Assembly: GCA_965660665.1 (NCBI GenBank)
Contig: CBFIAY010000003.1
Location: 161,265 to 225,264, forward strand
DNA from: Roseivirga sp.
GTDB taxonomy: Bacteria > Bacteroidota > Bacteroidia > Cytophagales > Cyclobacteriaceae
Length of the DNA: 64,000 nucleotides
Reading direction: 5' to 3'
Shown here one piece after another: positions 2,820-63,211 of the stretch; position 1 is the stretch's first letter; each line of letters starts with the position of its first letter. Both the position numbers and the translations under genes were made by a program. The notes beneath the pieces are model-generated. The model saw nothing but the letters and a program-made list of their open reading frames with translations. It ran no database searches and was not told the DNA's origin.

Positions 2820-2895
2820 GCTATTTTTCGGTTTTACCGAAATTTTAAGATTTTTGCGTAAAGTTATTTTAATCGATCGTTTCATTCGCATCAAA

Positions 2896-3693: not shown

Positions 3694-3697
3694 GCAA

Positions 3698-6398: not shown

Positions 6399-6400
6399 GT

Positions 6401-7261
6401 ATGTCAGAAGGAGAGAATCTGAATAATAAAGAGCTTAAAGCAATGGTCTCGTTGTTAGACGAGGACGACTTTGAAATTGTCGAACATGTTGAGGACAAGA
6501 TCAAGGCTATGGGTACCTACATTATTCCTTATCTGGAGTTTGAATGGGAGAATAGCTTTAACCCTGTCATTCAGAAACGTATTGAAGACCTAGTGCATAA
6601 ACTCCAGTTTGAGTTACTCAAAGAAAAGCTTTATGCCTGGAGAGTCAATGGTGGTAAAGACCTATTAGAAGGTGTTTGGCTAGTCAATACCTATCAATAT
6701 CCCGATTTAGAATACGAGCAGTTGAGTAAGGAGCTAGAGCAACTTTATTACGAGGCATGGCTTGAGTTTAAAGCAGAAATTCATCCTGTAGATCAGATTA
6801 AGATTCTCAATTCAGTGCTCTTTGGTAAGCTCCACTTTGGCGCCAATACTAAGAACTTTCATTCACCAGGTAACTCCATGTTAAGTGTCGTGCTGCAGAC
6901 TAAGAAAGGCAATCCAATTTCACTCTGCATCATTTATATGTTGGTTGCCCAAAAGCTGAAAATGCCAGTTTTCGGTGTGAACTTGCCAAATCTTTTTGTG
7001 ATGACTTACAAACAAGACAATGTTCAGTTTTATGTGAATGCATTTAATCGTGGACTCGTTTTCTCTCGGAAGGAATTAGATGAGTACATCGCCAACCTGA
7101 AACTATCCCCAAATGACGTGTTCTATGAGCCCTGCAGCCATATAGATATTGTGGTTCGTATGTTAAGAAATTTGATTAATTCCCATGAGAAATTAGGGCA
7201 CACCGAACGCGTGGATGAAATTAAGACCTTATTGAATATTGCCGAAAAGGGAGTTGAGTAA
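6401..7261 (+). CDS. SirB1/transglutaminase-like domain protein
   Basis: FHSPGNSMLSVVLQTKKGNPISL, GVNLPNLF, RMLRNL pattern. Confidence 0.8.
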   Translation: MSEGENLNNKELKAMVSLLDEDDFEIVEHVEDKIKAMGTYIIPYLEFEWENSFNPVIQKRIEDLVHKLQFELLKEKLYAWRVNGGKDLLEGVWLVNTYQYPDLEYEQLSKELEQLYYEAWLEFKAEIHPVDQIKILNSVLFGKLHFGANTKNFHSPGNSMLSVVLQTKKGNPISLCIIYMLVAQKLKMPVFGVNLPNLFVMTYKQDNVQFYVNAFNRGLVFSRKELDEYIANLKLSPNDVFYEPCSHIDIVVRMLRNLINSHEKLGHTERVDEIKTLLNIAEKGVE

Positions 7262-7264
7262 GCG

Positions 7265-7888
7265 TTAGTAGGCACAACATAAGTGCACATTGTCAAGCGC
7301 TTCGTATCTCAGTTTGTAGGTAGATTTAGAGTTGTTCTCAAGGATCATTCCTTGAACTTCACGTGCACTAATAAAGTCTGAAATCACTAGTTGCTCGGCA
7401 AAGATGAGCTGAGTTCTGCCATGCAATTTGTATAACGCCTCTTTTGCAGTCCATATTTTCGTGAGCTTCTCCCCATCACCAGCGACCCAAGAGGCTTCTG
7501 ATTCATGTAAGAACTTATGGGCAATCCGATGGATTTGTGCTCTTTCTGTTTCGATGTCGATACCGACCTCACCTTGCAGATTAATTGCTGCGGCCCCAAA
7601 ACCCTTGGCATGTGACACCGAAATGCCAATGGGAGTATCTTTTAAATGAGGTTTTCCGAACTCGTCTTTGTAAATATAAAATTGACCTATTTCTTTCACT
7701 AAGAACTTCAGTGCTGTTCGTGCGCCTAGCCACTCAAGCCGTTTAGCAGCAATTTTCACAGAATCCAAATCAGCTTTTTCCTCCTCATTAAGGTTCAGGT
7801 GTTGCAGCAGTTCGTCTTCGGTTTCGGTGATTTCCCATACGATATAGGAGACATCACAATTGATCGAAGATTTATGGGCAATTGGCAT
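7265..7888 (-). CDS. 4'-phosphopantetheinyl transferase (Sfp type)
   Basis: GKPHL, SVSHA, GIDIE, WTAKEALYK. Confidence 0.9.
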   Translation of the reverse strand: MPIAHKSSINCDVSYIVWEITETEDELLQHLNLNEEEKADLDSVKIAAKRLEWLGARTALKFLVKEIGQFYIYKDEFGKPHLKDTPIGISVSHAKGFGAAAINLQGEVGIDIETERAQIHRIAHKFLHESEASWVAGDGEKLTKIWTAKEALYKLHGRTQLIFAEQLVISDFISAREVQGMILENNSKSTYKLRYEALDNVHLCCAY

Positions 7889-7959
7889 GAATAATTAATG
7901 AATGCTCGTTCTTGATTGACTAATTTTACCTTAAATCGAAGATACTAGCTTTTTCATTG

Positions 7960-8871
7960 ATGTCTAAAATCGAAGTCAATAAAGTCAATACCGTAGGAGG
8001 CCATTCTGATTGTGTTTACACGCTTGAACAAGGCCCAAAACCTAACCAATTCTTCTCCTCAGGAGGAGACGGGGTTGTTGCGCTGTGGGATCTAAATGAC
8101 ATGGACAACGGCCGTATGATTGTAAAAGTGCCAAGTTCCGTCTATGCCCTTTGTTACTATGCAACACGGAATGTACTGATTGTCGGGCAAAATTTTGATG
8201 GCATTCATTTAGTTGATCTTGAGAAAAAGGAAGAGGTTGGTTCTATTAAGTTAGGCTCCAGTGCCATCTTCGATATCAAAGTAGTGAAGGACCGTATCTT
8301 TGCAACCTTGGCCAGTGGCCAAGTACATGTGCTCAACCTCAGGACATTAGAAACCATTCACGTGATTGAGGCTTCTGAAATGAGCGCAAGAACAATAGCC
8401 ATATCTGAGCACTTAGACCACCTAGCGATCGGCTTTAGCGACAATTTCATTCGCATCTATAGTTTGGTTGATTTCAGTTTAATCAAAGAAATCAAAGCAC
8501 ACAAACTTTCGGTCTTCACTGTACAATATTCTCCTGATCAGCGTTATCTCATTAGCGGAAGTCGGGATGCCCATCTAAAAATATGGAATACTGAAAAAGG
8601 TTATGAATTGCAGGAGTCTATAGTGGCGCATATGTTTGCAATTAACCATTTGGTTTTTAGCCCTGATAGCAAACATTTTGTAACTTGTAGTATGGATAAG
8701 TCCATTAAGGTCTGGGATGCCAAGACTTTCCAACTCCTGAAAGTGATTGATAAAGCAAGACATGCAGGCCACGGTACTTCGATCAATAAAGTGCTTTGGA
8801 CAAACTTCAACAACCTTTTATTGTCGGCCAGTGATGACCGGAGTATATCAACCTGGGATATCAAATTTTAA
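7960..8871 (+). CDS. WD40-repeat beta-propeller protein
   Basis: Repeated GH...SxxxDxxxxxW(D/N) units (GHSDCV...LWD; AHKLSV...SGSRDAHLKIWN; AHMFAI...SMDKSIKVWD; GHGTSI...ASDDRSISTWD). Confidence 0.9.
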   Translation: MSKIEVNKVNTVGGHSDCVYTLEQGPKPNQFFSSGGDGVVALWDLNDMDNGRMIVKVPSSVYALCYYATRNVLIVGQNFDGIHLVDLEKKEEVGSIKLGSSAIFDIKVVKDRIFATLASGQVHVLNLRTLETIHVIEASEMSARTIAISEHLDHLAIGFSDNFIRIYSLVDFSLIKEIKAHKLSVFTVQYSPDQRYLISGSRDAHLKIWNTEKGYELQESIVAHMFAINHLVFSPDSKHFVTCSMDKSIKVWDAKTFQLLKVIDKARHAGHGTSINKVLWTNFNNLLLSASDDRSISTWDIKF

Positions 8872-8883
8872 TTTTCGGTAAGC

Positions 8884-9750
8884 ATGAACATTACACCGCT
8901 AGAGATTAGGCAAAAAGAATTCGAAAAGGGATTTCGTGGTTATGATAAAGATGAGGTCAGCGCATTTCTGAACTCACTTTCCGTTGAGTGGGAAAGACTT
9001 TATGACCAGAATAAAGAGCTGAAATATAAACTTGAAGCTTCAGAGAATGAAGTGAAGAAGTTGCGAGAAGTGGAGAACTCCTTATTCAAAACTTTGAAGA
9101 CGGCCGAAGATACTGGTGCGAACATGGTAGAGCAGGCGACCAAGACTGCCGAACTCCACATGAAGGAAACCGAAATGAGAGCCGATGGCCTGATGAGCGA
9201 AGCCAAGTCTAGGGCCCGATCAATCATTGAGGAAGCCGAGAATAGATCGAGCATTATCATTGACGACATGGAAGATGAGATACGCCAGCTTGAGCAAGTT
9301 TTTAGGAGTATGAATGCAAATAAAGACTCTCTAATGTCTGAATTGAAGTTACTAGCAGAGGATATCCTGAATAAACTTCAGAGACACCAAGATTTTCCAA
9401 GTGACATTAAGCCTCATTTGAAGAAAGCTAAGGAACTCGGTAGAGAAATGAATGACAATAGCGATAAGCCGATCAGTGTCGAAGGCATACTATTAGAAAA
9501 TGAACACAAGGCCGCTGAAGAGAGTATAGATGAAATGGTGGAGGCGACAGAAGAAGATACCCAGACAGAGCCAATAGCTGAAATGACACCAGAAATCGAG
9601 GAGGTTGGATCAGAACCAGTGATTGAAGAAATAGAAGAAGCTCCAATAGCCGAAGAGACTCAAGAAGGAGAATTAAACGAAGAAGTTCAAGCAAAAGACA
9701 TCATCGAAGAAGATAAAGAGAAGAGTTCCTTCTTCGATAAGTTTGAGTGA
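8884..9750 (+). CDS. DivIVA domain-containing protein
   Basis: ITPLEIRQKEFEKGFRGYDKDEV N-terminus, coiled coil, acidic low-complexity tail. Confidence 0.9.
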   Translation: MNITPLEIRQKEFEKGFRGYDKDEVSAFLNSLSVEWERLYDQNKELKYKLEASENEVKKLREVENSLFKTLKTAEDTGANMVEQATKTAELHMKETEMRADGLMSEAKSRARSIIEEAENRSSIIIDDMEDEIRQLEQVFRSMNANKDSLMSELKLLAEDILNKLQRHQDFPSDIKPHLKKAKELGREMNDNSDKPISVEGILLENEHKAAEESIDEMVEATEEDTQTEPIAEMTPEIEEVGSEPVIEEIEEAPIAEETQEGELNEEVQAKDIIEEDKEKSSFFDKFE

Positions 9751-10114
9751 GATGAACAAAGATATCGTTTCATTGGAAGGCATGGAATTCTATGCCTTTC
9801 ATGGTTTTTACGAGGAAGAAAGAGAGAAAGGCAATGACTTTGTAGTTGACGTGCACGTAACTACCGATTTTGCCTTTGCCTCAGAACATGATGACCTTGA
9901 AGGTACAGTCAATTACGAGGCCATCTACGCCATTACTAAAGAAGAAATGGCTATACCCACAAAACTATTAGAACGCGTTGCTCAGCGAATCCTAGATCGG
10001 CTTTTTTACGCTTTTAGTAAGGTTTCGACTATAGAAATTTCAGTAGCCAAAAAGAATCCTCCTGTAGGTGGTCAGGTGAAGCAATCTCGAATAACAATGA
10101 TCCGTCACAAATAG
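9743..10114 (+). CDS. folB: Dihydroneopterin aldolase
   Basis: FYAFHG, TVNY, LLE, KKNPPVGG. Confidence 0.93.
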   Translation: MSEMNKDIVSLEGMEFYAFHGFYEEEREKGNDFVVDVHVTTDFAFASEHDDLEGTVNYEAIYAITKEEMAIPTKLLERVAQRILDRLFYAFSKVSTIEISVAKKNPPVGGQVKQSRITMIRHK

Positions 10115-10136
10115 TACTTCTCATCAGTACAGTATA

Positions 10137-12026
10137 ATGACCGAAGCCCAAAACACCTTAAGTAAGCTTAAAGAACTTCTCAGAATGGAGAAGGATGAAG
10201 ATTATGCGCAATATCAGCGTAAAATGCTCAATACATCCGTTGATGAAAGAAGACAAAAAGGCGTCACGTGGTATCCGGTTCAACTCGTAAATAGATTCAT
10301 CAGTACGGGTGAACGCTACACGCTAGAACTAGATCGGACATCTCATTTAGAGCAGAATCATGCTTTTCAAGTCGGAGCCATTGCCAGTGTATTCTCAGGC
10401 CATGGAGAAGACGCAGATGCTATTTCAGGAGTTATCAGTTATGTGCGTAGAGACAAAATGAGGATAGTCCTTAATGCTGATGACGCACCGGACTGGTTAA
10501 AAGATGGTAAGCTTGGCGTAAACTTACTCTTTGATGAAGGAGGCTATCGTGAAATGCAAAAGGCCTTAAAAGAAGTTCAGAGTGCTGATACGGGTAGGTT
10601 AGCCGATTTGAGAGAGATTCTTTATGGCGCTAAACAAGCATCGTTCAAAAAAGGCTTTGACTTTCAATCTGTCAACTTGAATGAGGGTCAAAATCGAGCA
10701 CTGTCTCAGATATTCAATGCAAAAGACGTTGCCATTATTCATGGCCCTCCAGGCACAGGGAAGACTACTACTTTGGTAAACGCGATCAAAGAAGTTGTCA
10801 AAACTGAAAAGCAGGTTTTAGTTTGTGCACAAAGTAATGCAGCAGTTGACCTGATGGTTGAGAAGCTAGATGGATTGGGGATTGAAGTGTTGCGAATTGG
10901 TCATCCGGCTCGACTGACACCTGAAGTGATTGAGAATAGTCTTGACGTTAAAATTTCAAAGCATCCCTTTTTTAAAGAGCTGAGAGAAATCAGAAAGCGC
11001 TCTGATGAGTATCGAAAAAAAGGGCTGAAGTACAAGCGTAATTTTGGTCACGAAGAACGCATGCAGCGAAAGATGGTCATGCATGAAGCCAAAATGCTAA
11101 AAGGCGATGCCGATCGTATTGAATCCCAAATTACTGAAGACTTGGTCGATAGGGCACAAGTGATTGCCTGTACACTGGTAGGATCAACCCATAGACTCTT
11201 GCAGGACAGAACATTTAGGTCTGTTTTTATTGATGAAGCTTCGCAGGCATTAGAGCCTGCTTGTTGGATCGCTATTAAGAAGGCACACCGCGTGATCATG
11301 GCGGGTGATCACCTACAACTACCTCCAACGATCAAGAGCATTAAAGCGGCTAAAGATGGACTCGCCAATACCCTCTTTGAAAAGGCGATTAAGCATATTG
11401 ATGAGTCTGTAATGCTTGAAACTCAATACCGCATGCACCCAGACATCATGAAGTTTTCAGGAGACCATTTTTATGGAGGTCAATTGAAAACCGCTGAGGA
11501 TGTACTATTGCGAGAAAAGGGAAGCGAGCTTGAACATTTCGTCTTTATAGATACTGCTGGTTGTGGCTTTGCCGAAAAAGTCAAGAAGGAAACCTTAAGT
11601 ACCTACAATAAAGAGGAGGCCGATTTGTTAGTGAAGCACCTTTCCAATAATCTATCACTTGATAAATCTGTCGGCATCATTGCACCATACAAGGCGCAAA
11701 TTGAATTGCTCAGAGACTTGGTGATGAAGAATCCAGCTTTTGATGCAGTCCGAGATCAAGTCTCGATTAATACAGTTGACGCCTTTCAAGGGCAAGAGCG
11801 TGACGTGATCTATATTGGCTTGACCAGAAGCAATGAACAGAATGAGATTGGATTCTTGAAAGAGTACCGAAGGATGAATGTGGCGATGACTAGAGCAAAA
11901 TCTCAACTGGTCATTATAGGAGACTCTGCTACGCTAGGCCGCGATGCCTTCTACAATTCAGTGATTGACTATGCCCAGCAGATTGGTGGGTATAAAAGTG
12001 CTTTTGAGTTTTTGTATGCTGAGTAA
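10137..12026 (+). CDS. Superfamily 1 helicase, IGHMBP2/Upf1-like (AAA_11/AAA_12)
   Basis: GPPGTGKTT, AQSNAAVD, DEASQ, GDHLQLPP, QYRMH, VDAFQGQE, RRMNVAMTRA. Confidence 0.9.
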   Translation: MTEAQNTLSKLKELLRMEKDEDYAQYQRKMLNTSVDERRQKGVTWYPVQLVNRFISTGERYTLELDRTSHLEQNHAFQVGAIASVFSGHGEDADAISGVISYVRRDKMRIVLNADDAPDWLKDGKLGVNLLFDEGGYREMQKALKEVQSADTGRLADLREILYGAKQASFKKGFDFQSVNLNEGQNRALSQIFNAKDVAIIHGPPGTGKTTTLVNAIKEVVKTEKQVLVCAQSNAAVDLMVEKLDGLGIEVLRIGHPARLTPEVIENSLDVKISKHPFFKELREIRKRSDEYRKKGLKYKRNFGHEERMQRKMVMHEAKMLKGDADRIESQITEDLVDRAQVIACTLVGSTHRLLQDRTFRSVFIDEASQALEPACWIAIKKAHRVIMAGDHLQLPPTIKSIKAAKDGLANTLFEKAIKHIDESVMLETQYRMHPDIMKFSGDHFYGGQLKTAEDVLLREKGSELEHFVFIDTAGCGFAEKVKKETLSTYNKEEADLLVKHLSNNLSLDKSVGIIAPYKAQIELLRDLVMKNPAFDAVRDQVSINTVDAFQGQERDVIYIGLTRSNEQNEIGFLKEYRRMNVAMTRAKSQLVIIGDSATLGRDAFYNSVIDYAQQIGGYKSAFEFLYAE

Positions 12027-17856: not shown

Positions 17857-19035
17857 TTACTTTTTTATGCTTAGCCTCGTTACGCTTTGAGTTATTAAAC
17901 AAGCCATGAAGACGTAGCCTAAGATCAACAAAACGAATCCAGATGAGGCAAACTCAGGATACCAACTTTCCCAAGCATCCCATTCAAAGGCTGGGTTTGG
18001 AATGTTTTTATAAAGTAGCATCAAGGGTATCGAGAGCAAACCCAATGTCAGAAACTGCTTTGCATTGAGCTCTTGGAGTTCATACATGATCCACGTGCCA
18101 ATAAATGGAAAGCCGAGATAGATGATGCGTGTCATATCACCTCCAGCCAGTACACCGAAGCCAAGATAAACTGCACTGAAAAGTACGAGCAAATTCCTTG
18201 TGTTGTCATACCGAAAACTTCTTGCAAATCGGCCAAACGTTAAGAAGAGTGAAGGCCCAAAGGCCACGGCCATGGCTGCTAGCCATCGGACAATTTCGAA
18301 TGGATTTAGAAGTGCCTCTTTCGCGTGATACCCCAAGGTAATCAAGGCACCTTTCCCTTCTTCTACCGGCAGGAAGTTTCCATTGACTAATGATTTGGCT
18401 ACTATCGCTAGCACCAATGAAGCAGCGATCAACGGTAAATCATAAAACCCTTCCTCTGTTTTCCGATTATGCCACCAGGCATAAATCAACAGGACAATCA
18501 TTAAGGCAATGAAAGACTCTTTTTGAATGGTAGCCAATGGCGCTAGCCAAAGCAAGTGCATGAACTTCCTTTTGATGAGTAACCACAGGAAAAGTGCCTG
18601 AAAAAAGTATAATGGGACGTCAACGGTAATGGGATCAAAGGCATTCAGCCTGATAAGACCAGTCCAGTGAAAGAGGAGCCAAATAAAGCCCGCAAAAAAC
18701 CATTTTAACTCAAAGCCTAACTGTCGCCAAAGTAGAAAGACAATCCAAACAGACAGTAGGGTGAAAATTAAATTGACAACTTGAAAGTCGTATATGATAT
18801 CCCCTGAATTGATGAGTGAGGCTAAAGCAGGTACTAGGATGCGCTGGTGAAATGGGAAAGCTACTTGGAATTCAGTTTGAACGCCTGTGAAGAACTCATA
18901 GATTCCTCGGTAATCATTTCCGTCAAAGGCTGGGGCAAAATCATAACTGATGGGTTCTTGCAAATAATGATACCCAAAGAAGCAAGCGATGGATAATCCT
19001 AAAAAAATGTACAGCCAATAGAGCCGAATTCGCAT
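17857..19035 (-). CDS. Polytopic membrane protein with GT-C glycosyltransferase-like motifs
   Basis: ~10-11 hydrophobic segments; first loop DGNDY...PFHQRILVP; TVDVP; QKES. Confidence 0.55.
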   Translation of the reverse strand: MRIRLYWLYIFLGLSIACFFGYHYLQEPISYDFAPAFDGNDYRGIYEFFTGVQTEFQVAFPFHQRILVPALASLINSGDIIYDFQVVNLIFTLLSVWIVFLLWRQLGFELKWFFAGFIWLLFHWTGLIRLNAFDPITVDVPLYFFQALFLWLLIKRKFMHLLWLAPLATIQKESFIALMIVLLIYAWWHNRKTEEGFYDLPLIAASLVLAIVAKSLVNGNFLPVEEGKGALITLGYHAKEALLNPFEIVRWLAAMAVAFGPSLFLTFGRFARSFRYDNTRNLLVLFSAVYLGFGVLAGGDMTRIIYLGFPFIGTWIMYELQELNAKQFLTLGLLSIPLMLLYKNIPNPAFEWDAWESWYPEFASSGFVLLILGYVFMACLITQSVTRLSIKK

Positions 19036-35002: not shown

Positions 35003-37561
35003 CTAACGATTAAGGGTTTCCTGACGCCTTTTATTTACGAGGTCATTAAACTTAATGGTGATCTCACTGTGAACGGTGGGCTCCGTCAGGGCTTCAATTT
35101 TAGAAAGAGCCGTTCTGCCGAAATTACTGAGTCCTGTTTTAGCACATTGATAGATATATTGCTCTAATAACTTGCTAGAGTTTACGTTTATATTGATTAC
35201 TTCTAAGAGTATTTCATAAATCTCATGCTCAGTAATATTTGCTAACTCAAGTGATTGAATGGCAGAAAGCGTTGTTTCTTCATCGAAGGCATTTTTTAAT
35301 GCGATTGACTTTAATCGTGAGATATAATCCGAGCTATCTAGATTTACTTTTTCCTTTTCCAACGTATGGAGTAACTCGCTGATATCTGCTTTTTCAGTAT
35401 AACTATTGACTGCCTTGATCTCATCAATAAAGATTTTCACCTGTGGTTCGTTGTAGCCATTTTTCTGTGCAGCCTCAAGACTTTCTATCGTCATTGCTGC
35501 CTGACCTTGATCAAAAGCCCAAACAGCTTTTATGAAATAGGGAAACCCGGCAGAAGCTTGACCAGCAGCAATGGTAATCTCAATTGTGGTAAAGGCTTGA
35601 TTGATTTCCCCTGAGTTGTAAAGTGCTATGGCCTTTGCAATCAAAAGGAAGTTACTATAGATGTTATTTTTTGCACTGCTTAGATAGAAGTTGATTGCTG
35701 AAAGTATCTGCTCGTTGTCAGTAGAAGCTTGATTAAGTGCAGCGTTGTATAAATAGAATAACTCTTCTTTTAGTAGTAAGGTGTCTTTGTCTAGCTCAAG
35801 ATTAAAGGCAATGGTGTTGCCTTGCGCGTTCGCTAGTGCTTGCCGGTTGATCATCACATGAATGGCATCAGTGTGCTTGTAGTTTACCGTGGTGTCGAAA
35901 TTTACTCTCGCTGCCAGGTCGTAGTTGAGCGCTGCTAAATTCGCTTCACTCACTACTGCAGATTTACCATCAATTCCTTCGAAGTAGCGATAGGCGGAAT
36001 CATAATTGCTGTATCGATAATGGGATAAGCCGAGGTTGTTTTTGACTTGTCCGCTGGTCTGACTTTCAACTGTGTTCATTAGCGCGGTAAGCTCTCGGTA
36101 TAGTAAGTCACGCTCGGCATAATAATTTGCAAAGGCTACCCGAGCTTTTGGACTATTCGAGGCTTCTAAAATACTTCTGAGCTGAGACGGTACTTCGTTT
36201 AATTCTCTTTCACCTTCCGCAAGTCTCGTTAAGCCATAATTAGCCTTAAAGTTGTAAAAATCCAAATAGACACTCTGTTTGTAGTATTGGTCAGTCAGTA
36301 ATTCGTTGTCGATCTCTTCTGCTAAAGAGGCTAGCATTGAGAACTGACCTGACTTCACCTGATAATAAGGCCTATTCTCTAAGTAGAATATACCTCCTAA
36401 AAACAGTATGAAGGCCAATAATCTGACCATAAGAATTGGAGTTCTTAAGCCTTTAAAAAAGATGGGCCAGACTTCCAGATTGGAAATAAGAGGAGGAATA
36501 AAGTTAATCAATGCATAAGTAAAAAAGGCTAAACCGAACGTCATGTGGCTAATGATAATAATCCATTCCATTGCATTTATGATTGAATCATTCACCGAAA
36601 GATGTGCCCAAGCAATCAAGCAGAATGTCAAACTTGCGCCCATAGGAAATAGCCAATATCGAATAAGCTTTAAATCGATATCACCGGCCATCGCTTCTAG
36701 TTTTCTTTCTAAACAGAAGAAGGCTGAGATCACAGAAAATACTAGGAACAAATAGGGGTTGAGGAAGTAGATGTCTATTTCAGTATAGCCAGTGCGTTGA
36801 AGGAACAATAGTATAGCTAGGGCAACATAAATTGAACCGATAATTGAGAAATGCTTGAGGCTATTCTTACCGTTAGAAGACCCTTGGGTGGTTAGTTTAA
36901 ATAAGCTGAAAATGTTATCACCTGCAATGAATAGGATAAAAATGGTGACAAATATAATTGGGCCTAGTATTCCGTATGAAAGTGTTACTAGGTGTGGATC
37001 TGCTACATTGGTGAATAGCATGATGGTGGTAATTAAAGCGCCAAATAGCAATAAGCTGCTCAAGAGGCGCTTCCAAAGTTTAGTCTCTGGAATGAAGCTT
37101 TGGAAAAGATAGGTAACGATGAAATAGCCTCCTATTGCCCCGTAGGTTAAGTATGGATCAGATATTCCTAATTCTTCCAGTCTCAATTGAATCAAGGTGA
37201 AAACCACCACGCCAGATACCATAAAGTAGGAGAACCGATCGAAGTAGCTGACCAGCGTAGTGATAGTCACAAGAGAGAGATAAAAGGCAATCAGTAAGAT
37301 AGTTTCTGGCCAACCTAGATATAGAATGTCCCCTGTGGTGAACTTTTGCCAACTGATAATTTGATCGATGTAAAGTCCTGCAGCTTGTCCCTTGAGTTGA
37401 AAATACTCAAGAAGGAGGGGTCTTGTTTTGAATGTAGTTTCAATTTCCCATGGAAGGGCTAAATTATCACCTATGATCAGGGCATACATGAATAATACAA
37501 AACAGCATAGTGTGATACTATAGCTAAAGATTTTGAAGTAGTTGAATGCCTTGTTATCCAA
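35003..37561 (-). CDS. Large polytopic membrane protein with TPR-like C-terminal region
   Basis: ~13 hydrophobic segments in the first ~390 aa, then helical repeats (NNLGLSHYRYSNYDSAYRYF; KAIALYNSGEINQAF). Confidence 0.65.
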   Translation of the reverse strand: MDNKAFNYFKIFSYSITLCCFVLFMYALIIGDNLALPWEIETTFKTRPLLLEYFQLKGQAAGLYIDQIISWQKFTTGDILYLGWPETILLIAFYLSLVTITTLVSYFDRFSYFMVSGVVVFTLIQLRLEELGISDPYLTYGAIGGYFIVTYLFQSFIPETKLWKRLLSSLLLFGALITTIMLFTNVADPHLVTLSYGILGPIIFVTIFILFIAGDNIFSLFKLTTQGSSNGKNSLKHFSIIGSIYVALAILLFLQRTGYTEIDIYFLNPYLFLVFSVISAFFCLERKLEAMAGDIDLKLIRYWLFPMGASLTFCLIAWAHLSVNDSIINAMEWIIIISHMTFGLAFFTYALINFIPPLISNLEVWPIFFKGLRTPILMVRLLAFILFLGGIFYLENRPYYQVKSGQFSMLASLAEEIDNELLTDQYYKQSVYLDFYNFKANYGLTRLAEGERELNEVPSQLRSILEASNSPKARVAFANYYAERDLLYRELTALMNTVESQTSGQVKNNLGLSHYRYSNYDSAYRYFEGIDGKSAVVSEANLAALNYDLAARVNFDTTVNYKHTDAIHVMINRQALANAQGNTIAFNLELDKDTLLLKEELFYLYNAALNQASTDNEQILSAINFYLSSAKNNIYSNFLLIAKAIALYNSGEINQAFTTIEITIAAGQASAGFPYFIKAVWAFDQGQAAMTIESLEAAQKNGYNEPQVKIFIDEIKAVNSYTEKADISELLHTLEKEKVNLDSSDYISRLKSIALKNAFDEETTLSAIQSLELANITEHEIYEILLEVININVNSSKLLEQYIYQCAKTGLSNFGRTALSKIEALTEPTVHSEITIKFNDLVNKRRQETLNR

Positions 37562-38650: not shown

Positions 38651-39019
38651 TTATTGATTAATCATATGCAGTGCCGCCTTGTATACATAATCCCAGAATT
38701 CATCTTTCTCTTTTTCAGCAAAAGTGGCTTTTTCTAGCGCATTGTGCATGTGTTGTAACCAGTGTGTGGCTTCTTCTTGACCAATTTTCCATTGAAAATG
38801 TCTCCTTCGAAGCATGGGTTGGCCACGTTCATCTGTATAGCTCTGATGGCCACCAAGTGATTGAATGAAAAATAGCTTAAGTCTATTTTTAGCGGGCACT
38901 AGATCTTCGGGGTACATCTTTCTAATCAGGTCATCACTTCCAATCCCTTCATAGAAGTCATCCACTAATCGAAGGATGTTTTCTTCCCCAATTCTTTCAT
39001 AGAGGGTTTGGTCGGCCAT
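38651..39019 (-). CDS. Group II truncated haemoglobin (globin)
   Basis: LYERIG, DDFY (TyrB10), MYP (TyrCD1), LGG, RGQPMLRRRH (HisF8), W at G8. Confidence 0.88.
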   Translation of the reverse strand: MADQTLYERIGEENILRLVDDFYEGIGSDDLIRKMYPEDLVPAKNRLKLFFIQSLGGHQSYTDERGQPMLRRRHFQWKIGQEEATHWLQHMHNALEKATFAEKEKDEFWDYVYKAALHMINQ

Positions 39020-40275
39020 TACATCTGATTTAGTGCTTGATCGAAATCTGAGATTAGGTCATTTGGATTTTCGATACCTACGGAGATTCTGACAAGGCTT
39101 TCGGTGATGTTGTTTTTTATCCTGTCTTCCTCGTTCATATTAGAGCTGCTCATGGTGTAAGGGTGAGAGGCTAATGTCTCAGTACTGCCCAATGACACAG
39201 CAAGTTTGACTAACTCTAAGCTGTTTAAAAAGGCGAACGCTGCTTTTTCACCACCCTTGACTTCAAAGGCCATCATTGCGCCTGCTGAATTCTGCTGCTT
39301 TTTGTAGATCGTGTGTTGTGGATCTCCTTCCTTCAAGTGTCCGAGGAAGTAGACTTTGTTCACCATAGAATGATCTTTCAAGAAGTTGGCCAATTGTTCA
39401 GCATTAGCAGCTTGTTTTTCCATGCGAAGAGAAACCGTTTCCAAACTTCTAGTCACTAACCATGACGTAAATGGAGAGGCCATACATCCCAGTGTTGTCC
39501 TTAGTCCTTTGATGGTTTGAATCAAGTCCTCTTTACCTGAACATGCCCCTGCGATAACATCGCTATGTCCCCCAATGTATTTGGTAGCTGAATACAGATT
39601 TAGGTCTGCACCTGAAGCCAGTGGCTTTTGGAAAATAGGGCCTAGGTAGGTGTTGTCTACTGCGATAACGGCTTGGATATCATTTGATCTTAAGTCTTCT
39701 CTTAGGTCTGCTATCATTCCAATGTCTGTTAAGGACAATGTTGGATTGGCAGGAGTTTCTACGTAGATCATCTTGAGTCTCTTCGCTCTCGGATGATCAA
39801 GGATAATCGCTTTAATTTCTTCTAGAGAATGGTTGTTGTCAAACTCTATATAAGCAACATCAAAATGATTTAATGTACGCTTGATAAAGGTGTCTGTTCC
39901 ACCATATAACGGGGATGACATAAGAATTAAATCTCCCGCTTTGCAGAAAGTCATTAGGGTAGTCGAGATAGCAGCCATACCACTTTCGAAGAAGGCCGCG
40001 TCTTCAGCACCATCTAGTTGTGCTAAGCGAAACTCAGCAGCGGTAAGGTTCGGGTGATTCAGTCGCGTATAGATGAGGCTACTGTTTCTTTCCTCCAGCG
40101 TGTCAGCGCTTGAATACTTGTTGAAAAAGGCTTTTCCTTCTTCGGCAGTATTGAACACGAAAGTGGACGTTTGGAAGATTGGGTTCTTCAGGGAGTTTAA
40201 AACTCCGATTGGATCGTGACCGCCTGCGACTACAAGGCTTTCGGCACTAAATTTTGCTTTGTTTTTTTTATCCAT
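39019..40275 (-). CDS. PLP-dependent trans-sulfuration enzyme (cystathionine gamma-synthase / methionine gamma-lyase family)
   Basis: PIFQTSTF, YTRLNHP, SGMAAI, ETPANP, VDNT, YSATKYIGGHSD (PLP Lys), SLGSTETL, RISVGIE. Confidence 0.92.
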   Translation of the reverse strand: MDKKNKAKFSAESLVVAGGHDPIGVLNSLKNPIFQTSTFVFNTAEEGKAFFNKYSSADTLEERNSSLIYTRLNHPNLTAAEFRLAQLDGAEDAAFFESGMAAISTTLMTFCKAGDLILMSSPLYGGTDTFIKRTLNHFDVAYIEFDNNHSLEEIKAIILDHPRAKRLKMIYVETPANPTLSLTDIGMIADLREDLRSNDIQAVIAVDNTYLGPIFQKPLASGADLNLYSATKYIGGHSDVIAGACSGKEDLIQTIKGLRTTLGCMASPFTSWLVTRSLETVSLRMEKQAANAEQLANFLKDHSMVNKVYFLGHLKEGDPQHTIYKKQQNSAGAMMAFEVKGGEKAAFAFLNSLELVKLAVSLGSTETLASHPYTMSSSNMNEEDRIKNNITESLVRISVGIENPNDLISDFDQALNQM

Positions 40276-51278: not shown

Positions 51279-52823
51279 ATGCCTATAATTGGATCAATTT
51301 TAAAGAAAGGTATTAAGCTCCGCGAAACGTTGGAGCAAGATTTTACCTCACCATATGATTTGCAGAAGAAGGAGTTGTCAAAACTCTTAATTAGTGCAAG
51401 GAACACTCAATTCGGTAGAACATACGACTTCCACACAGTGCTGGAGCAATTCAGAAGTTTCGGACAGCATGATTTCTTTGAAAAATTTAAAGAACTCGTC
51501 CCGGTTTGTGACTATGATAAAATGGACCATGAATGGTGGCATAAGATGAGGGATGGTGAAGCTGATGTCAGCTGGCCAGGTAAAACCAAGTTCTTTGCCC
51601 TCAGTTCAGGTACCTCTGGTTCTGCTTCCAAGTATATTCCTGTTACGAAGGATATGATCCGACAGATCAGGAAGACCGGAACGAGGCACATGTACACCCT
51701 GTCTAAATACGATTTCCCCGATAAGTTTTTTCAATCAGGTATGCTGATGCTGGGCGGAAGTACAGCGTTAAACTTCTCAGGCAACTACTATTATGGAGAC
51801 TTAAGTGGGATAACGACTGGCCAATTACCACTTTGGGTACAAGGTTTTTCTCGACCTACACCTAAAATAAAAAAGCATAAGGATTGGGAAATGAAATTGG
51901 AAGAAATTGTTGAGTCAGCACCGAAATGGAATATCGGTATGATAGTAGGCGTTCCTGCCTGGATGACGATACTTCTTGAGCGAATAATTGAACGATATGG
52001 AGTAAAAAACATTCATGAGATTTGGCCAAACCTAGGGTCATTCGTACATGGGGGAGTGGCTTTCGAGCCTTATAGACATAGCTTCGATAAATTATTAGGC
52101 AAACCAATTCATTACATAGAAACATATCTGGCTTCAGAAGGCTTCATTGCGTTTCAGGACTCGCCGGAGAAACGTGGAATGCGCATGATGCTAAATGGTG
52201 GCATCTTCTACGAGTTTGTCCCATTCAATGAAGAAAACTTTGATCAGGATGGGCAGATAGTCGATAACCCTGAAACGCTCATGATTGATCAAGTGGAAGA
52301 AGGTAAAGATTATGCACTACTGATTTCGACTTGCTCAGGAGCTTGGCGATATCTCATTGGCGATACCGTTAGGTTCTTAGACAAGCATAGCTCTGAAATT
52401 ATTATCACTGGTAGGACTAAGCACTTCTTAAGTCTTTGTGGAGAGCATCTGTCTGTCGATAATATGAATCGAGCCATAGAACAGACTTCTGATGAATTCA
52501 ATATTGGGGTAAAGGAGTTTACTGTAGCCGGTGTACCTGATGGCAAACTGTTCTCACATCATTGGTTTGTGGGTACTGATGATCCTGTTGATGCCGAAGC
52601 CTTAAAAGAAAGAATTGACGATTGCTTGAATGAACTCAATGATGATTATGCCGTAGAGCGTAAGCATGCGTTGAAAAATATTAAACTCGATGTGTTGCCT
52701 ACCGAAGTCTTCTACGATTGGTTAAGATCTCAAGGCAAAGAAGGCGGGCAAACAAAATTTCCACGCGTGTTAAAGAAAGAGAAACTTGAAAGCTGGCTCA
52801 CCTTTGTTGGTAGTAAAGCCTAA
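51279..52823 (+). CDS. GH3 family acyl-adenylate/amido synthetase
   Basis: SSGTSG, YLASEG, WRYLIGD, GGQTKFPR. Confidence 0.9.
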   Translation: MPIIGSILKKGIKLRETLEQDFTSPYDLQKKELSKLLISARNTQFGRTYDFHTVLEQFRSFGQHDFFEKFKELVPVCDYDKMDHEWWHKMRDGEADVSWPGKTKFFALSSGTSGSASKYIPVTKDMIRQIRKTGTRHMYTLSKYDFPDKFFQSGMLMLGGSTALNFSGNYYYGDLSGITTGQLPLWVQGFSRPTPKIKKHKDWEMKLEEIVESAPKWNIGMIVGVPAWMTILLERIIERYGVKNIHEIWPNLGSFVHGGVAFEPYRHSFDKLLGKPIHYIETYLASEGFIAFQDSPEKRGMRMMLNGGIFYEFVPFNEENFDQDGQIVDNPETLMIDQVEEGKDYALLISTCSGAWRYLIGDTVRFLDKHSSEIIITGRTKHFLSLCGEHLSVDNMNRAIEQTSDEFNIGVKEFTVAGVPDGKLFSHHWFVGTDDPVDAEALKERIDDCLNELNDDYAVERKHALKNIKLDVLPTEVFYDWLRSQGKEGGQTKFPRVLKKEKLESWLTFVGSKA

Positions 52824-54119: not shown

Positions 54120-55165
54120 TCTTCCAGCACATTGCTAATGAAGGTGCTTTTGGATAGGAGATAGAGCAAGAAAAACACGATTCCCCAACTCAGGTAGATA
54201 GTGTAGAAGTCAGTAGTATTCTTGTAACGGGTTTCCTTGATCTCCGCTTTCTCATATTCATCAATTAGTTTGAATACGCTGGCTAAGGCTTGGTTATCAG
54301 ACACGCGATAGAACTCGCCATTGCCGATTTGGGCAATCTCTCTCAATGTGGTTTCATCCAATGTATTCTCAACATAGTTTGGGCGACCAAAGAAGTCTTT
54401 TCCAAAAGGAACTTTACCCTCTTTGCCAATACCAATCGTGTAGATCTTAATGTCAAATGCTGAAGCCAATTCTGCTGCCGTCACAGGGTCGATATTTCCT
54501 GCAGTATTATCTCCGTCAGAAATCAATATCATCACCTTAGAAGCCGCTGTAGACTCTCGCATTCTGTTGGTGCCAACAGCGATGGCACTACCGATGGCTG
54601 TACCACGGTTTTCAATTTTATTAAAGTCAATCTCTTCTTCGATGAACTTATAGAGCAGTTCGTAGTCGGTGGTCAAAGGAGAAAGTGAATAGGCGTCTCC
54701 AGAGAAGATGACCAATCCAATACGATCTTGGCTTCGGCCCCCGATGAAATCGCGTGCTGTTCTTTTTGCAGCCTCTAGACGGTTTGGCTTAAAGTCTTCT
54801 ATTTGCATGGACTCAGAGATATCAATCACCAACGCGATATCAATACCTTCTGACCATTGTTCCACTTCTTCATTCGTTCTTTGCGGACGCGCCAAGGCAA
54901 CTAATAGTAGCATGAGTGATAATGCCATGAGTGCGTTTGGTATGACTCTTAGGTAACTAGCCCAATGCTTTTTGATTTCTTTTTTCGGTAGGGCTACAGA
55001 TAGTTTCTGTTTGATTTTGCTTCCGATCAACCACTTTAGAATAAACAGTAGTAAGACAATCGGGATAGCGTAGAGTACAAAGAAGAACTCCCAGTCAAAA
55101 GACTTGAAAGTTGTAGGGGTAAACCATTCCAGCGAATACCATTTGTATAGTGTTTCGTCAAGCAT
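54116..55165 (-). CDS. VWA domain protein (BatA-like)
   Basis: LARP, MIDAS DISESM, TAIG, ISDG, DETTLREIA. Confidence 0.9.
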   Translation of the reverse strand: MLDETLYKWYSLEWFTPTTFKSFDWEFFFVLYAIPIVLLLFILKWLIGSKIKQKLSVALPKKEIKKHWASYLRVIPNALMALSLMLLLVALARPQRTNEEVEQWSEGIDIALVIDISESMQIEDFKPNRLEAAKRTARDFIGGRSQDRIGLVIFSGDAYSLSPLTTDYELLYKFIEEEIDFNKIENRGTAIGSAIAVGTNRMRESTAASKVMILISDGDNTAGNIDPVTAAELASAFDIKIYTIGIGKEGKVPFGKDFFGRPNYVENTLDETTLREIAQIGNGEFYRVSDNQALASVFKLIDEYEKAEIKETRYKNTTDFYTIYLSWGIVFFLLYLLSKSTFISNVLED

Positions 55166-56051
55166 TCTTTATCACCTCCGTTACATGATTGTATCTATCC
55201 TCTGAGTAATCTTTCAAAAACTCGAAGTCATTTTGTAAAGCTGTGACTTCTATTGGACTGTAAATGTTTTTATCAATTGACTTTAAAGTCTCTTCTAATG
55301 AAGTGCTTTTCTGTACTAAAACGATTTCTTTCGTGGTGAGTTTGGTATACGGTATTTTCTCAAGTCTTTCCATATAACCTTTCCAGAACTTAAGAACCGA
55401 CTCAATTTTCAATTTAGTAGTGTCAGCATTTAACTGCTCAATTTCAATGTCAAATTGCTCCTTGAATTTTATCAGCTGCTTATTCAGTCTATAGAGCTTA
55501 ATACGTTTCTGAATTTGATTACCCCAAACCAGCATCACGATCAAGGCCACGATGCCTAAAATAATCAATCCAATCACCCAGTAGGGATAGTTAAACTGTA
55601 ATGAAACGGGCATATAAGCCGATGTCTCAGCAAGACTCACAGAGTCAGGCATCTGAGTGACCACCTGATCTAACGTAATGGAATCCATCAAACTGTATAG
55701 TTCTAGGCTGTCATTTCCAATGAAAAGGAATATCGGTAAACTGAGCCTTTGCACCGTATCAATTTCAAAAGTGGCCAAATAATAAACGGCACTATCAATA
55801 CTGTTGATGTCATCAGACTGGGTGTCGAAATACTCTTTTTTTAAGAGCTCAAATGGCGAGAAGTTAAAGAGCGAGTCGGGAAAAATAACTGGCCTATTCT
55901 TGCGATCCTTGTAACTCAAGGAGTAAGGAACAGACTCACCAATTTTCACACTGTCTTTCAGAAAAAAACCAATAGGTTTAAGTTCCTGCGCTGAGGCACT
56001 GCCAATGATAAAAACCGATAAAATCAGAGATGCTAGTAACTTTCTAATCAC
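55158..56051 (-). CDS. Membrane protein of the DUF58-BatA cluster
   Basis: Signal peptide, DSVKIGE, single TM, TTKEI; overlaps both neighbours. Confidence 0.7.
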   Translation of the reverse strand: MIRKLLASLILSVFIIGSASAQELKPIGFFLKDSVKIGESVPYSLSYKDRKNRPVIFPDSLFNFSPFELLKKEYFDTQSDDINSIDSAVYYLATFEIDTVQRLSLPIFLFIGNDSLELYSLMDSITLDQVVTQMPDSVSLAETSAYMPVSLQFNYPYWVIGLIILGIVALIVMLVWGNQIQKRIKLYRLNKQLIKFKEQFDIEIEQLNADTTKLKIESVLKFWKGYMERLEKIPYTKLTTKEIVLVQKSTSLEETLKSIDKNIYSPIEVTALQNDFEFLKDYSEDRYNHVTEVIKNA

Positions 56052-61402: not shown

Positions 61403-61410
61403 TACTTTTG
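61403..61410 (+). promoter_or_regulatory. -7 promoter box for glgP
   Basis: TACTTTTG, 19 nt upstream of the ATG. Confidence 0.55.
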
Positions 61411-61429: not shown

Positions 61430-63073
61430 ATGAAATTCAAACACCCTTATAAATTTGGTAAAGGTTACGAGAAATCAGTAGCCTATTTTTCAATGGAATT
61501 TGCCATTGATCAACCTTTGAAAATATATTCTGGAGGCCTCGGATTTTTGGCAGGTTCTCATATGAGAAGTGCTTATGATTTAAAGCAAAACATGGTTGGT
61601 ATCGGTATCCTTTGGAAATATGGGTACTATGACCAGGGTCGGAAACATAACAATGAATTGGATGCGCTTTGGCAAGAGCGTCACTATAACTTTTTAGAAG
61701 ACACTGGACTCGAATTAGAAGTAAATGTTAATCACCATCCAGTGAAGGTGAAGGTATTCTACCTAGCTCCAGATGTATTTGGTTCTGCTCCAATGTTCTT
61801 GCTTTCTACAGATCATCCAGAGAATGATCATCTAGCTCAGACGATTACACATAAGCTTTATGACAATAACATCTCTACAAGAATCGCTCAGTATATCTTA
61901 CTTGGAATCGGTGGTGCAAAATTACTTGAAGCCATCAATCATAATGTTGAGCAATATCACTTCAACGAGGCGCATGCTTTGCCGGCAGCTTTCCGTTTGA
62001 TGGAAAAATTAGGGGATATTGAAAAGGTTAAAGAACAGCTTGTATTTACCACACATACTCCTGTAAAGGCGGGTAATGAGGTCAATGACCCTTACATGCT
62101 GCATAATATGGGTTTCTTCAATGGGTTTTCAATCCAAGAAGTAGAAGAGATGGTAGGTTTTGAAAACGGAATGTTTAACCATACCCTTGCAGCGCTGCGG
62201 ATGTCGAAGGTCTCTAATGCAGTTTCGAAGAAGCATTGTGAGGTTTCAAAGGAAATGTGGGGCGGATTTGATGGTGTTTGCGATATTATCCCAATTACCA
62301 ACGCTCAGAATAAAGCCTATTGGACTGATTCAGAATTGGAAAAGTCACATGCTAAAAAAGACGACAAGAAGTTTCTGAAACGGAAGATTGAACTGAAGCA
62401 GGAGCTTTTCAAATTTGTGGCAGACCAAACAGGAAAGATTCTCGATCCGAACGTTTTGACGATAGTTTGGGCAAGACGATTTGCTGGATATAAAAGAGCG
62501 GATTTGATTGCTCGTGATGTCGAGCGTTTTGAAAAGCTATTGAATAATAAAGACTATCCAGTTCAGATTATCTGGGCAGGTAAGCCTTATCCATTAGATC
62601 ATGGTGCAGTGAGTACTTTTAACTGGTTAGTACACTTTACAAGGAAGTATCATAACGCTACTATTTTAACTGGTTATGAATTAAGCCTTTCGGCTTTGAT
62701 GAAGAAGGGGTCTGATGTATGGTTGAACAACCCGAGGATTCCACTGGAAGCATCGGGTACTTCAGGGATGACAGCGGCTATGAACGGTTCTTTAAACTTT
62801 TCTACCAATGATGGTTGGATCCTAGAGTTCGGTGAGCACGGTAAAAATGGTTTTGTAATTCCAGAAGTAGATACTACACTTCCAGAAGGTGAGCAAGATC
62901 AGCACGATGCAGATCACATGATGCGCATATTGGAAGACGAGATCGTTCCAATGTATTATACAGATCAAAAGGCCTGGGCTGCCATGAACTATCAGAGCAT
63001 GGATGATGTCGATAAATATTTTAGAGCATCTCGTATGGCGGATGAGTATTATAAAAAGCTATACAATCACTAA
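61430..63073 (+). CDS. glgP: Short alpha-glucan phosphorylase (GT35) homologue with PLP-Lys replaced by Thr
   Basis: YFSMEF, YSGGLGFLAG, HFNEAH, TTHTP, ARRFAGYKR, EASGTSGMTAAMNG; 547 aa. Confidence 0.88.
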   Translation: MKFKHPYKFGKGYEKSVAYFSMEFAIDQPLKIYSGGLGFLAGSHMRSAYDLKQNMVGIGILWKYGYYDQGRKHNNELDALWQERHYNFLEDTGLELEVNVNHHPVKVKVFYLAPDVFGSAPMFLLSTDHPENDHLAQTITHKLYDNNISTRIAQYILLGIGGAKLLEAINHNVEQYHFNEAHALPAAFRLMEKLGDIEKVKEQLVFTTHTPVKAGNEVNDPYMLHNMGFFNGFSIQEVEEMVGFENGMFNHTLAALRMSKVSNAVSKKHCEVSKEMWGGFDGVCDIIPITNAQNKAYWTDSELEKSHAKKDDKKFLKRKIELKQELFKFVADQTGKILDPNVLTIVWARRFAGYKRADLIARDVERFEKLLNNKDYPVQIIWAGKPYPLDHGAVSTFNWLVHFTRKYHNATILTGYELSLSALMKKGSDVWLNNPRIPLEASGTSGMTAAMNGSLNFSTNDGWILEFGEHGKNGFVIPEVDTTLPEGEQDQHDADHMMRILEDEIVPMYYTDQKAWAAMNYQSMDDVDKYFRASRMADEYYKKLYNH

Positions 63074-63101: not shown

Positions 63102-63130
63102 ATCGGCAGACTTAGGTCTGCCGATTTTTT
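63102..63130 (+). terminator. Intrinsic terminator-like hairpin abutting the tRNA 5' end
   Basis: ATCGGCAGAC-TTAG-GTCTGCCGAT followed by TTTTT. Confidence 0.75.
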
Positions 63131-63205
63131 GGGGTATTAGCTCAGTTGGTTTAGAGCGCTGCCTTGACAGGGCAGAGGTCACTGGTTCGAATCCAGTATG
63201 TCCCA
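63131..63205 (+). tRNA. tRNA-Val (anticodon GAC), CCA not encoded
   Basis: Acceptor GGGGTAT/ATGTCCC+A73, D arm GCTC/GAGC, anticodon arm CTGCC-TTGACAG-GGCAG, T arm ACTGG-TTCGAAT-CCAGT. Confidence 0.97.
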
Positions 63206-63211
63206 CTTTCC

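Follow-up and report, generated by a model that had tools for sequence, protein, structure and literature searches.

A short GT35 phosphorylase of Roseivirga without the pyridoxal phosphate lysine, and a second lysine that covaries with its loss

Introduction

For decades, alpha-glucan phosphorylases were believed to be unable to work without the lysine that carries pyridoxal 5'-phosphate (PLP), a view that was overturned in 2024-2026 through one archaeal enzyme. Gonzalez-Ordenes et al. (bioRxiv 10.1101/2024.09.29.615707; cited in PMC13324651 as FEBS J 2025;292:5818) reported that Thr or Ser replaces this lysine in the glycogen phosphorylase (GP) of Methanococcales, and that the purified enzyme of Methanococcus maripaludis (MmGP) forms glucose-1-phosphate from glycogen and phosphate with kinetic parameters inside the range reported for prokaryotic enzymes. 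PLP was undetected in MmGP by absorbance, fluorescence, cyanohydrin assay and intact mass, and peptide mapping with 89% coverage revealed no PLP adduct. In their AlphaFold-based model the pyridoxal pocket is occupied by bulky side chains, Phe26 among them, and a second free phosphate in the subsite of the PLP phosphate was proposed as the acid-base catalyst. The enzyme was inhibited by the glucose esters of adenosine and uridine diphosphate (ADP-glucose, UDP-glucose), ADP, pyrophosphate (PPi) and phosphoenolpyruvate (PEP), and activated by fructose 6-phosphate (F6P), fructose 1,6-bisphosphate (FBP) and polyphosphate. The present work concerns a gene of the same clade in Roseivirga sp., located at 61430..63073 (+ strand) of a 64,000-nucleotide stretch of contig CBFIAY010000003.1 (hereafter the window), which encodes a short alpha-glucan (glycogen) phosphorylase of glycosyltransferase family GT35 lacking the PLP lysine.

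The authors of the MmGP study regarded the lysine-less trait as confined to Methanococcales. Lysine-less forms were also reported in GP1 clade VIII, whose members have ca. 550 residues (Nat Commun 2026;17:5756, PMC13324651); there, Thr, Gly or Ala takes the place of the lysine in Flavobacteria, Chitinophagia, Cytophagia, Akkermansia, Gastranaerophilales and Archaea, and the loss of the lysine coincides with a split inside the clade. The lysine-less subfamily, Cytophagia included, and its PLP-independent activity are already published (2024-2026), and the novelty that an initial annotation of the window had implied for the subfamily does not hold, since Cytophagia had been named among the carriers. 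The remaining interest, and what seems to be new here, lies in the breadth of the clade, in the covariation of Lys425 and Ser421 with the loss, and in apparent natural revertants that carry Gln425 and Lys448.

Results

The open reading frame (ORF) of the Roseivirga phosphorylase starts with ATG, contains zero internal stops and encodes 547 amino acids, unbroken as the initial annotation had described it. The protein matched NCBIfam TIGR02094 ('more_P_ylases', alpha-glucan family phosphorylase) with 441.4 bits against a cut-off of 191.7, and Pfam PF00343 with 58.4 bits against a cut-off of 27, so that both curated cut-offs place it in GT35. An AlphaFold2 (AF2) model built with an 88-sequence alignment (predicted local distance difference test 95.7, predicted template modelling score 0.93) gave a GT-B fold of two Rossmann domains that superposes on solved phosphorylases. 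Foldseek analysis with this model returned template modelling (TM) scores of 0.90-0.91 to the GP of Segatella copri, at 29% identity, and of about 0.8 to the phosphorylases of E. coli, rabbit, human and plants; the best 50 matches by E-value were all phosphorylases, and no glycogen synthase stood among them. Glycogen synthases of family GT3 have been mentioned for Bacteroidota in a Chem Rev review. This identity was ruled out here by zero GT3/GT5 signal in sequence or fold: the Pfam scan at E <= 0.01 gave no match to the synthase models (Glyco_transf_5/Glycos_transf_1, Glycogen_syn), a PDB sequence search with the Roseivirga protein gave no synthase chain, and by both measures the protein falls outside the glycogen/starch synthases (GT5, GT3).

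The active-site motifs named in the initial annotation (GGLG loop, THT, R..YKR and EASG) were all found intact, as SGGLGF (residues 34-39), FTTHTP (206-211), RRFAGYKR (349-356) and EASGTSG (440-446). The GGLG loop together with Phe39, the equivalent of Phe26 in the pocket model of the MmGP paper, is encoded at 61532..61546 (+). The TTHT motif (62048..62059, +), which is kept in the lysine-less and the lysine-bearing clades alike, contains the glucose-binding His209 (rabbit H377, S. copri H316). The strand and loop V346-W347-A-R349-R350-F-A-G-Y354-K355-R356 (62465..62497, +) contributes the phosphate site, in which R349, R350 and K355 correspond to S. copri R507, R508 and K513. EASGTSGM, residues 440-447 (62747..62770, +), serves to bind the glucosyl group, and the N-terminus of its helix to bind phosphate. 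With the Asn of the T-N motif also present, the full set of GT35 substrate-site residues was recovered, and the glucosyl and phosphate subsites (GGLG loop, His209, Asn291, Arg349, Arg350, Tyr354, Lys355 and EASGTSG) are unchanged. The catalytic residues are 95-100% conserved in the lysine-less clade and equally conserved in the lysine-bearing group.

What the protein lacks is the lysine of the classical GT35 motif EASGTxxMK. Codon 448 (62771..62773, +) is ACA, as the initial annotation had read it, and places Thr at the site of the PLP Schiff base, in the context G-M-T-A-A-M-N-G within PLEASGTSGMTAAMNG. This position corresponds to K680 of the rabbit enzyme and K646 of E. coli MalP. In the alignment it is matched by Lys609 of S. 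copri GP (which reads EASGTSGEK), the residue named as the PLP lysine of that enzyme (PNAS 2026, PMC12912991).

The loss of the lysine is real. A tally of Lys and Thr at this site, which the initial annotation had proposed, gave 119 Thr, 1 Ala and 0 Lys in the best 120 homologues (99% to 60% identity; Roseivirga, Fulvivirga, Cyclobacteriaceae and Flammeovirgaceae), in agreement with its suggestion that other short Bacteroidota homologues carry Thr. When one genome per species was scanned, codon 448 in the 39 loci was ACA (14), ACG (12), ACT (4), ACC (2) or a Ser codon (7), and never Lys; the nearest of these loci belonged to an uncultured Roseivirga sp. metagenome-assembled genome at 99% identity. 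Contigs of two independent marine plankton metagenome runs were identical to the window across codon 448. A marine metatranscriptome contig, about 97% identical, also retained it, and of its 18 listed differences, 16 fell at third codon positions. This bias, together with the turnover of codons, indicates that the gene is under purifying selection; it is probably also expressed, although DNA carried over into RNA libraries may account for the contig. Sequencing error and private mutation, both of which had been considered at first, are excluded by the state of the homologues, by the codons in use and by the agreement of independent assemblies, and the Thr/Ser state proved to be fixed across a deep clade.

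The extent of this clade was determined by an exhaustive profile search on representatives clustered at 50% identity, and the sequence set was widened by two further searches seeded with distant members. The closest relatives in the profile search were all without Lys448, carrying T, S, G or A, and lysine-bearing proteins turned up only at about 39% identity and below. The combined alignment comprised 397 sequences, 284 of them without Lys448, and the lysine-bearing comparison group had 111 members. Only small residues occur at position 448 of the lysine-less sequences, most often Ser (S 162, T 108, G 7, A 6, C 1). In neighbour-joining trees with 200 bootstrap replicates, the 284 sequences and four nested ones with Gln425 and Lys448 split from the lysine-bearing relatives in 200/200 replicates, and in 197/200 after removal of the diagnostic columns. 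The Roseivirga protein grouped with MmGP, apart from the lysine-bearing GP1 proteins, and its 547 residues and Thr448 agree with the length (about 520-570 amino acids) and the small residue at 448 found in the clade.

The clade ranges over Bacteroidota, Patescibacteria, Campylobacterota, Verrucomicrobiota, Melainabacteria and Methanococcales. Its Bacteroidota members belong to Cytophagales, Flavobacteriales (Weeksellaceae, Ornithobacterium), Hymenobacteraceae and Saprospiraceae, and its Campylobacterota members to Sulfurimonas, Hydrogenimonas, Nitratifractor and Sulfurovum; the others come from many lineages of Patescibacteria, the candidate phyla radiation (CPR), and from Verrucomicrobiota, Vampirovibrionales, Hippea, Halopseudomonas and Methanococcales. 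The present tree agrees with the description of GP1 clade VIII (PMC13324651) on both the lysine loss and the clade split. Added to that picture are the many Patescibacteria/CPR, the Campylobacterota (Sulfurimonas, Hydrogenimonas, Nitratifractor), Hippea and Halopseudomonas, as well as Ser as the commonest replacement, the covariation of Lys425 and Ser421, and the nested subgroup with Lys448.

Column-by-column comparison of the lysine-less and lysine-bearing groups in the alignment revealed that the loss at 448 is accompanied by a gain elsewhere. Codon 425 (AAG; 62702..62704, +) encodes Lys, close to the C-terminal end of helix 418-427. Lys occupies this position in 282/284 lysine-less sequences and Arg in the other 2; the 111 lysine-bearing relatives have a buried hydrophobic residue there (V, T or I; 0 Lys). 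By these counts lysines 425 and 448 are mutually exclusive. Both AAA and AAG are in use for Lys425 across genomes. One helical turn earlier, codon 421 (TCG; 62690..62692, +) encodes Ser, which is found in 268/284 lysine-less sequences and replaced by Ala or Gly in the lysine-bearing group. Further positions switch to larger residues in the lysine-less clade (G25A, V/I39F/Y, G346V, F347W, A386P and G393A/M): position 39 is F or Y in 212/284 sequences versus V or I in the lysine-bearing relatives, and V346-W347 stands against G-F in the lysine-bearing clade.

Counting from the motifs, Tyr416, Ser421 and Lys425 presumably correspond to Tyr648, Ala653 and Ile657 of rabbit GP, respectively; in the alignment, Lys425 falls on Val586 of S. 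copri GP. The secondary structure of the AF2 model places helix 418-427, strand 430-433 and helix 444-451 in succession. Helices that follow each other in a Rossmann-type beta-alpha-beta-alpha unit pack next to one another against the same face of the sheet, and from this adjacency Lys425, near the end of the first helix, is plausibly able to reach the groove that would hold a lysine placed in the opening turn of the second helix, that is, the groove of Lys448.

The same pocket signature is present in MmGP (UniProt Q6LXX5), which shares 49% identity with the Roseivirga protein over 534 residues (E 2e-173) and belongs to the same clade. The comparison was made through the cluster representative of M. 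maripaludis (P0388), in which Phe26 lies at the position given in the paper. Both proteins have F after GGLG, V-W before RR, GKP (as GKP(H/Y)P) and S...K on helix 418-427, and both are short forms without the N-terminal regulatory region. F39, V346, W347, P386, S421 and K425 of Roseivirga all match the representative, and F39, S421, K425 and T448 correspond to F26, S401, K405 and T428 of MmGP, respectively. MmGP differs in being archaeal and in having 520 rather than 547 amino acids, and half of the residues differ; its regulation by F6P, FBP, PEP, PPi and ADP is not to be assumed for the Roseivirga protein. The covarying lysine (Lys405) is absent from the text of the preprint version of the MmGP study (10.1101/2024.09.29.615707), and a compensating residue goes unmentioned in the Nat Commun text (PMC13324651).

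Few sequences depart from this pattern. Four sequences nested in the lysine-less clade (P0180, P0309, P0326 and P0327) carry Gln425, Met421 and Arg393 together with Lys448, and retain the clade markers W347, P386, K319 and F475, so that the coupling of 425 and 448 is seen in both directions. This subgroup may represent a natural reversion, perhaps one that binds PLP again. One named member with Gln425 and Lys448 belongs to Candidatus Giovannonibacteria (Patescibacteria). The only 2/284 lysine-less sequences without Lys425 are P0341 and P0344, which have Arg425 with Met or Gly at 421. P0344 was found on four contigs from three sources, which makes an assembly error unlikely.

The best solved relative is S. 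copri GP (PDB 9L6I, 20YR), found with E ~1e-73 by sequence in addition to the fold match given above. It shares with the Roseivirga protein the GP1/TIGR02094 family and the catalytic residues H316, R507, R508 and K513. Unlike the Roseivirga protein, it is 852 amino acids long owing to additional domains (N-terminal and helical), assembles into pentamers or decamers, is regulated by adenosine monophosphate (AMP), and has PLP on Lys609 (versus Thr448) and Val586 (versus Lys425). Rabbit muscle GP and E. coli MalP/GlgP are likewise similar in GT-B fold, reaction, GGLG loop, His/Asn glucose ligands, R-x4-K phosphate site and EASGT motif, although identity in the structural alignments is 15-18%. They differ in length (about 800-840 amino acids), in the covalent PLP on Lys680/Lys646, and in being dimeric and allosteric.

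Genomic context analysis revealed that the phosphorylase gene stands alone in the window, between a divergent acetyl-CoA hydrolase/transferase gene and a hairpin resembling an intrinsic terminator (63102..63131, +; 10 bp stem with 6 G-C pairs, followed by a T-run), which begins 29 nt past the stop codon and is directly followed by a tRNA-Val gene (anticodon GAC; 63131-63206, +). From the hairpin, the T-run and the tRNA that comes next, the gene looks monocistronic. A sigma-70 consensus scan upstream of the gene gave nothing convincing. The sequence TACTTTTG at 61403-61410 (+), 20 nt upstream of the ATG, is a putative -7 promoter element that matches the Bacteroidota consensus TAnnTTTG.

Conserved neighbours were not found among the window and seven loci of relatives (L001, L002, L003, L004, L007, L009 and L011). 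Among the relatives' loci examined, a glycogen cluster occurred only in L005 and L006. In L006, a TARA Oceans Bacteroidota contig, positions 5230-11614 encode on one strand a GT4/GT5-like glucosyltransferase of 419 amino acids, an unknown protein, a GlgX-type debrancher (CBM48, alpha-amylase (GH13) and isoamylase C-terminal domains) and the lysine-less phosphorylase. The second of these, a 343-amino-acid protein without a Pfam match, may be an uncharacterised component of glycogen metabolism. The cluster of L005 is similar. In another relative (P0491, 866 amino acids), the lysine-less phosphorylase carries an N-terminal fusion to a sugar kinase domain of the ROK family (residues 24-298). The gene order of L006 and this fusion suggest a catabolic role.

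A PLP-dependent enzyme of Cys/Met metabolism is encoded at 39019-40275 (-) of the window; the organism thus still uses PLP, which argues that cofactor scarcity was not the cause of the loss. In a Niyogibacteria (CPR) contig (L009), PLP enzymes are likewise encoded next to the gene of the lysine-less phosphorylase.

Other features of the window were recorded as well. A bacterial homologue of the GH3 acyl-acid amido synthetases of plants (PF03321/PF23571/PF23572) is encoded at 51279-52823 (+), with about 8.6 kb between it and the downstream phosphorylase gene, and another lies at 2802-4319 of the Ornithobacterium rhinotracheale locus (L011), about 4 kb from the orthologous gene; this shared neighbourhood may be residual synteny, and is perhaps coincidental. 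The ORF at 35003-37561 (-; 852 amino acids, TTG start) gave no Pfam family at E <= 1e-5, and those at 17857-19035 (-; 392 amino acids) and 55158-56051 (-; 297 amino acids) gave no Pfam match. The last of these sits between DUF58 and VWA genes, an arrangement found in aerotolerance clusters of BatA/MoxR type.

Discussion

The gene described here probably encodes a working short-branch GT35 glycogen/alpha-1,4-glucan phosphorylase that does without pyridoxal phosphate; its branch is the one named GP1 clade VIII in the Nat Commun phylogeny. For the vacant site the initial annotation had offered three options: PLP bound non-covalently, a complete absence of PLP, or a different donor, for example a nucleotide sugar. 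The absence of PLP is the supported reading for the Roseivirga protein, because a clade member of 49% identity, MmGP, is both active and PLP-free; the results obtained with MmGP speak against non-covalent PLP, and the third option is weighed below.

With the glucosyl and phosphate subsites unchanged, the pyridoxal pocket would be closed by the larger side chains of Ala25, Phe39, Val346, Trp347, Pro386, Ala393, Ser421 and Lys425. A second free orthophosphate would occupy the site of the PLP 5'-phosphate and shuttle a proton to the substrate phosphate, in line with the proposal for MmGP. The buried ammonium group of Lys425 would extend from the adjacent helix into the room formerly taken up by the side chain of Lys448, as an anchor or counter-charge for the free phosphate, and in the cell the enzyme would free glucose-1-phosphate from stored glycogen. 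That the ammonium group of Lys425 provides the anchor or charge for the 'catalytic' free phosphate postulated in MmGP is a tentative proposal drawn from the covariation, to which somewhat less than an even chance is given. With the same reserve, Lys425, aided by Ser421, may be regarded as the evolutionary replacement of the cofactor, which either clamps the orthophosphate or itself shuttles protons.

Several points weigh against this interpretation. Function is transferred from an archaeal enzyme at 49% identity. Covariation, the topology of the helices and the counting of motifs are the grounds for the role of Lys425, and the Arg425 of P0341 and P0344 means that Lys is not strictly required, though binding of an anion would still fit. 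In S. copri GP, R583, which aligns with A422 of the Roseivirga protein next to these helix positions, contacts the allosteric AMP (PMC12912991); Lys425 could belong to an effector site, and many phosphorylated metabolites affect MmGP. The mechanism with two phosphates has only the status of a model in its source (bioRxiv 10.1101/2024.09.29.615707), and the genomic context is uninformative in the window and in most relatives, in which the gene stands alone.

A migration of the cofactor lysine would account for part of the same data, with Lys425 as the new Schiff-base lysine, covalent PLP kept and catalysis conventional. The strict exclusivity of the two lysines amounts to a volume-conserving swap, from (V/T/I, K) to (K, T/S/G/A) at 425/448, and W298 (rabbit W491) and Y416 (rabbit Y648), both aromatic residues of the pyridoxal pocket, are still present, as is the phosphate-binding GTSG start of the helix. 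MmGP, however, has the same pair, K405/T428, and was PLP-free by UV-visible absorbance, fluorescence, cyanohydrin assay and whole-protein mass (bioRxiv 10.1101/2024.09.29.615707); the acid cyanohydrin assay releases PLP held as a Schiff base, and the peptide map (89% coverage) was free of adducts. Moreover, the arginine of the two natural Arg425 members is unable to form an aldimine, and the pocket is bulkier across the clade (G25A, V/I39F, G346V, F347W, G393A/M). Migration with PLP retained is very improbable and was dropped on these three grounds.

Even less probable is a glycogen or glucan synthase that uses nucleotide sugars, in which the vacated PLP site would accommodate the nucleoside monophosphate moiety of ADP-glucose or UDP-glucose; the enzyme would thereby have gone back to the chemistry customary for GT-B transferases. 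PLP in GT-B enzymes is thought to substitute for a nucleoside monophosphate (review), some clade members have weak precomputed matches to the starch-synthase domain PF08323, and ADP-glucose binds tightly to MmGP, with a half-maximal inhibitory concentration of 0.045 mM, which becomes about ten times higher when phosphate is saturating (bioRxiv 10.1101/2024.09.29.615707). This tight inhibition was judged the sole point in its favour. Against it, the nucleotide sugars inhibit a phosphorolysis that has been demonstrated in MmGP, and phosphorylases of bacteria and yeast, too, have been reported to be regulated by ADP-glucose and UDP-glucose (same source). The pocket residues grow rather than shrink, the best 50 Foldseek matches by E-value are all phosphorylases, and the L006 cluster already has a separate GT4/5-type transferase, with the lysine-less phosphorylase placed beside a GlgX-type debrancher; the nucleotide-sugar synthase was rejected.

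Least probable of all is a catalytically dead or regulatory pseudo-phosphorylase that binds glucan or phosphate only: a cofactor lysine deemed essential for 60 years is indeed gone, and the assayed enzyme of the clade is archaeal, but every other catalytic residue is 95-100% conserved across a very deep clade, purifying selection is strong, and the kinetics of archaeal MmGP lie inside the range of prokaryotic phosphorylases (bioRxiv 10.1101/2024.09.29.615707).

For the interpretation as a phosphorylase without PLP, the covarying positions name the residues with which cofactor-free phosphorolysis can be tested and which could account for it, Lys425 first and then Ser421, Phe39, Val346 and Trp347, and the apparent natural revertants with Gln425 and Lys448 offer a ready-made comparison. 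A cofactor-free, monomeric phosphorylase would also be attractive for the production of glucose-1-phosphate and for enzymatic glucan synthesis. If Lys425 is indeed the replacement of the cofactor, the two lysines would be mutually exclusive alternative solutions, and the subgroup with Gln425 and Lys448 would be a natural reversion, possibly back to the use of PLP. The lysine-less solution is common in at least seven phyla, the reduced-genome Patescibacteria included, and with the Roseivirga window it is now seen in the genome of an ordinary marine member of Bacteroidota.

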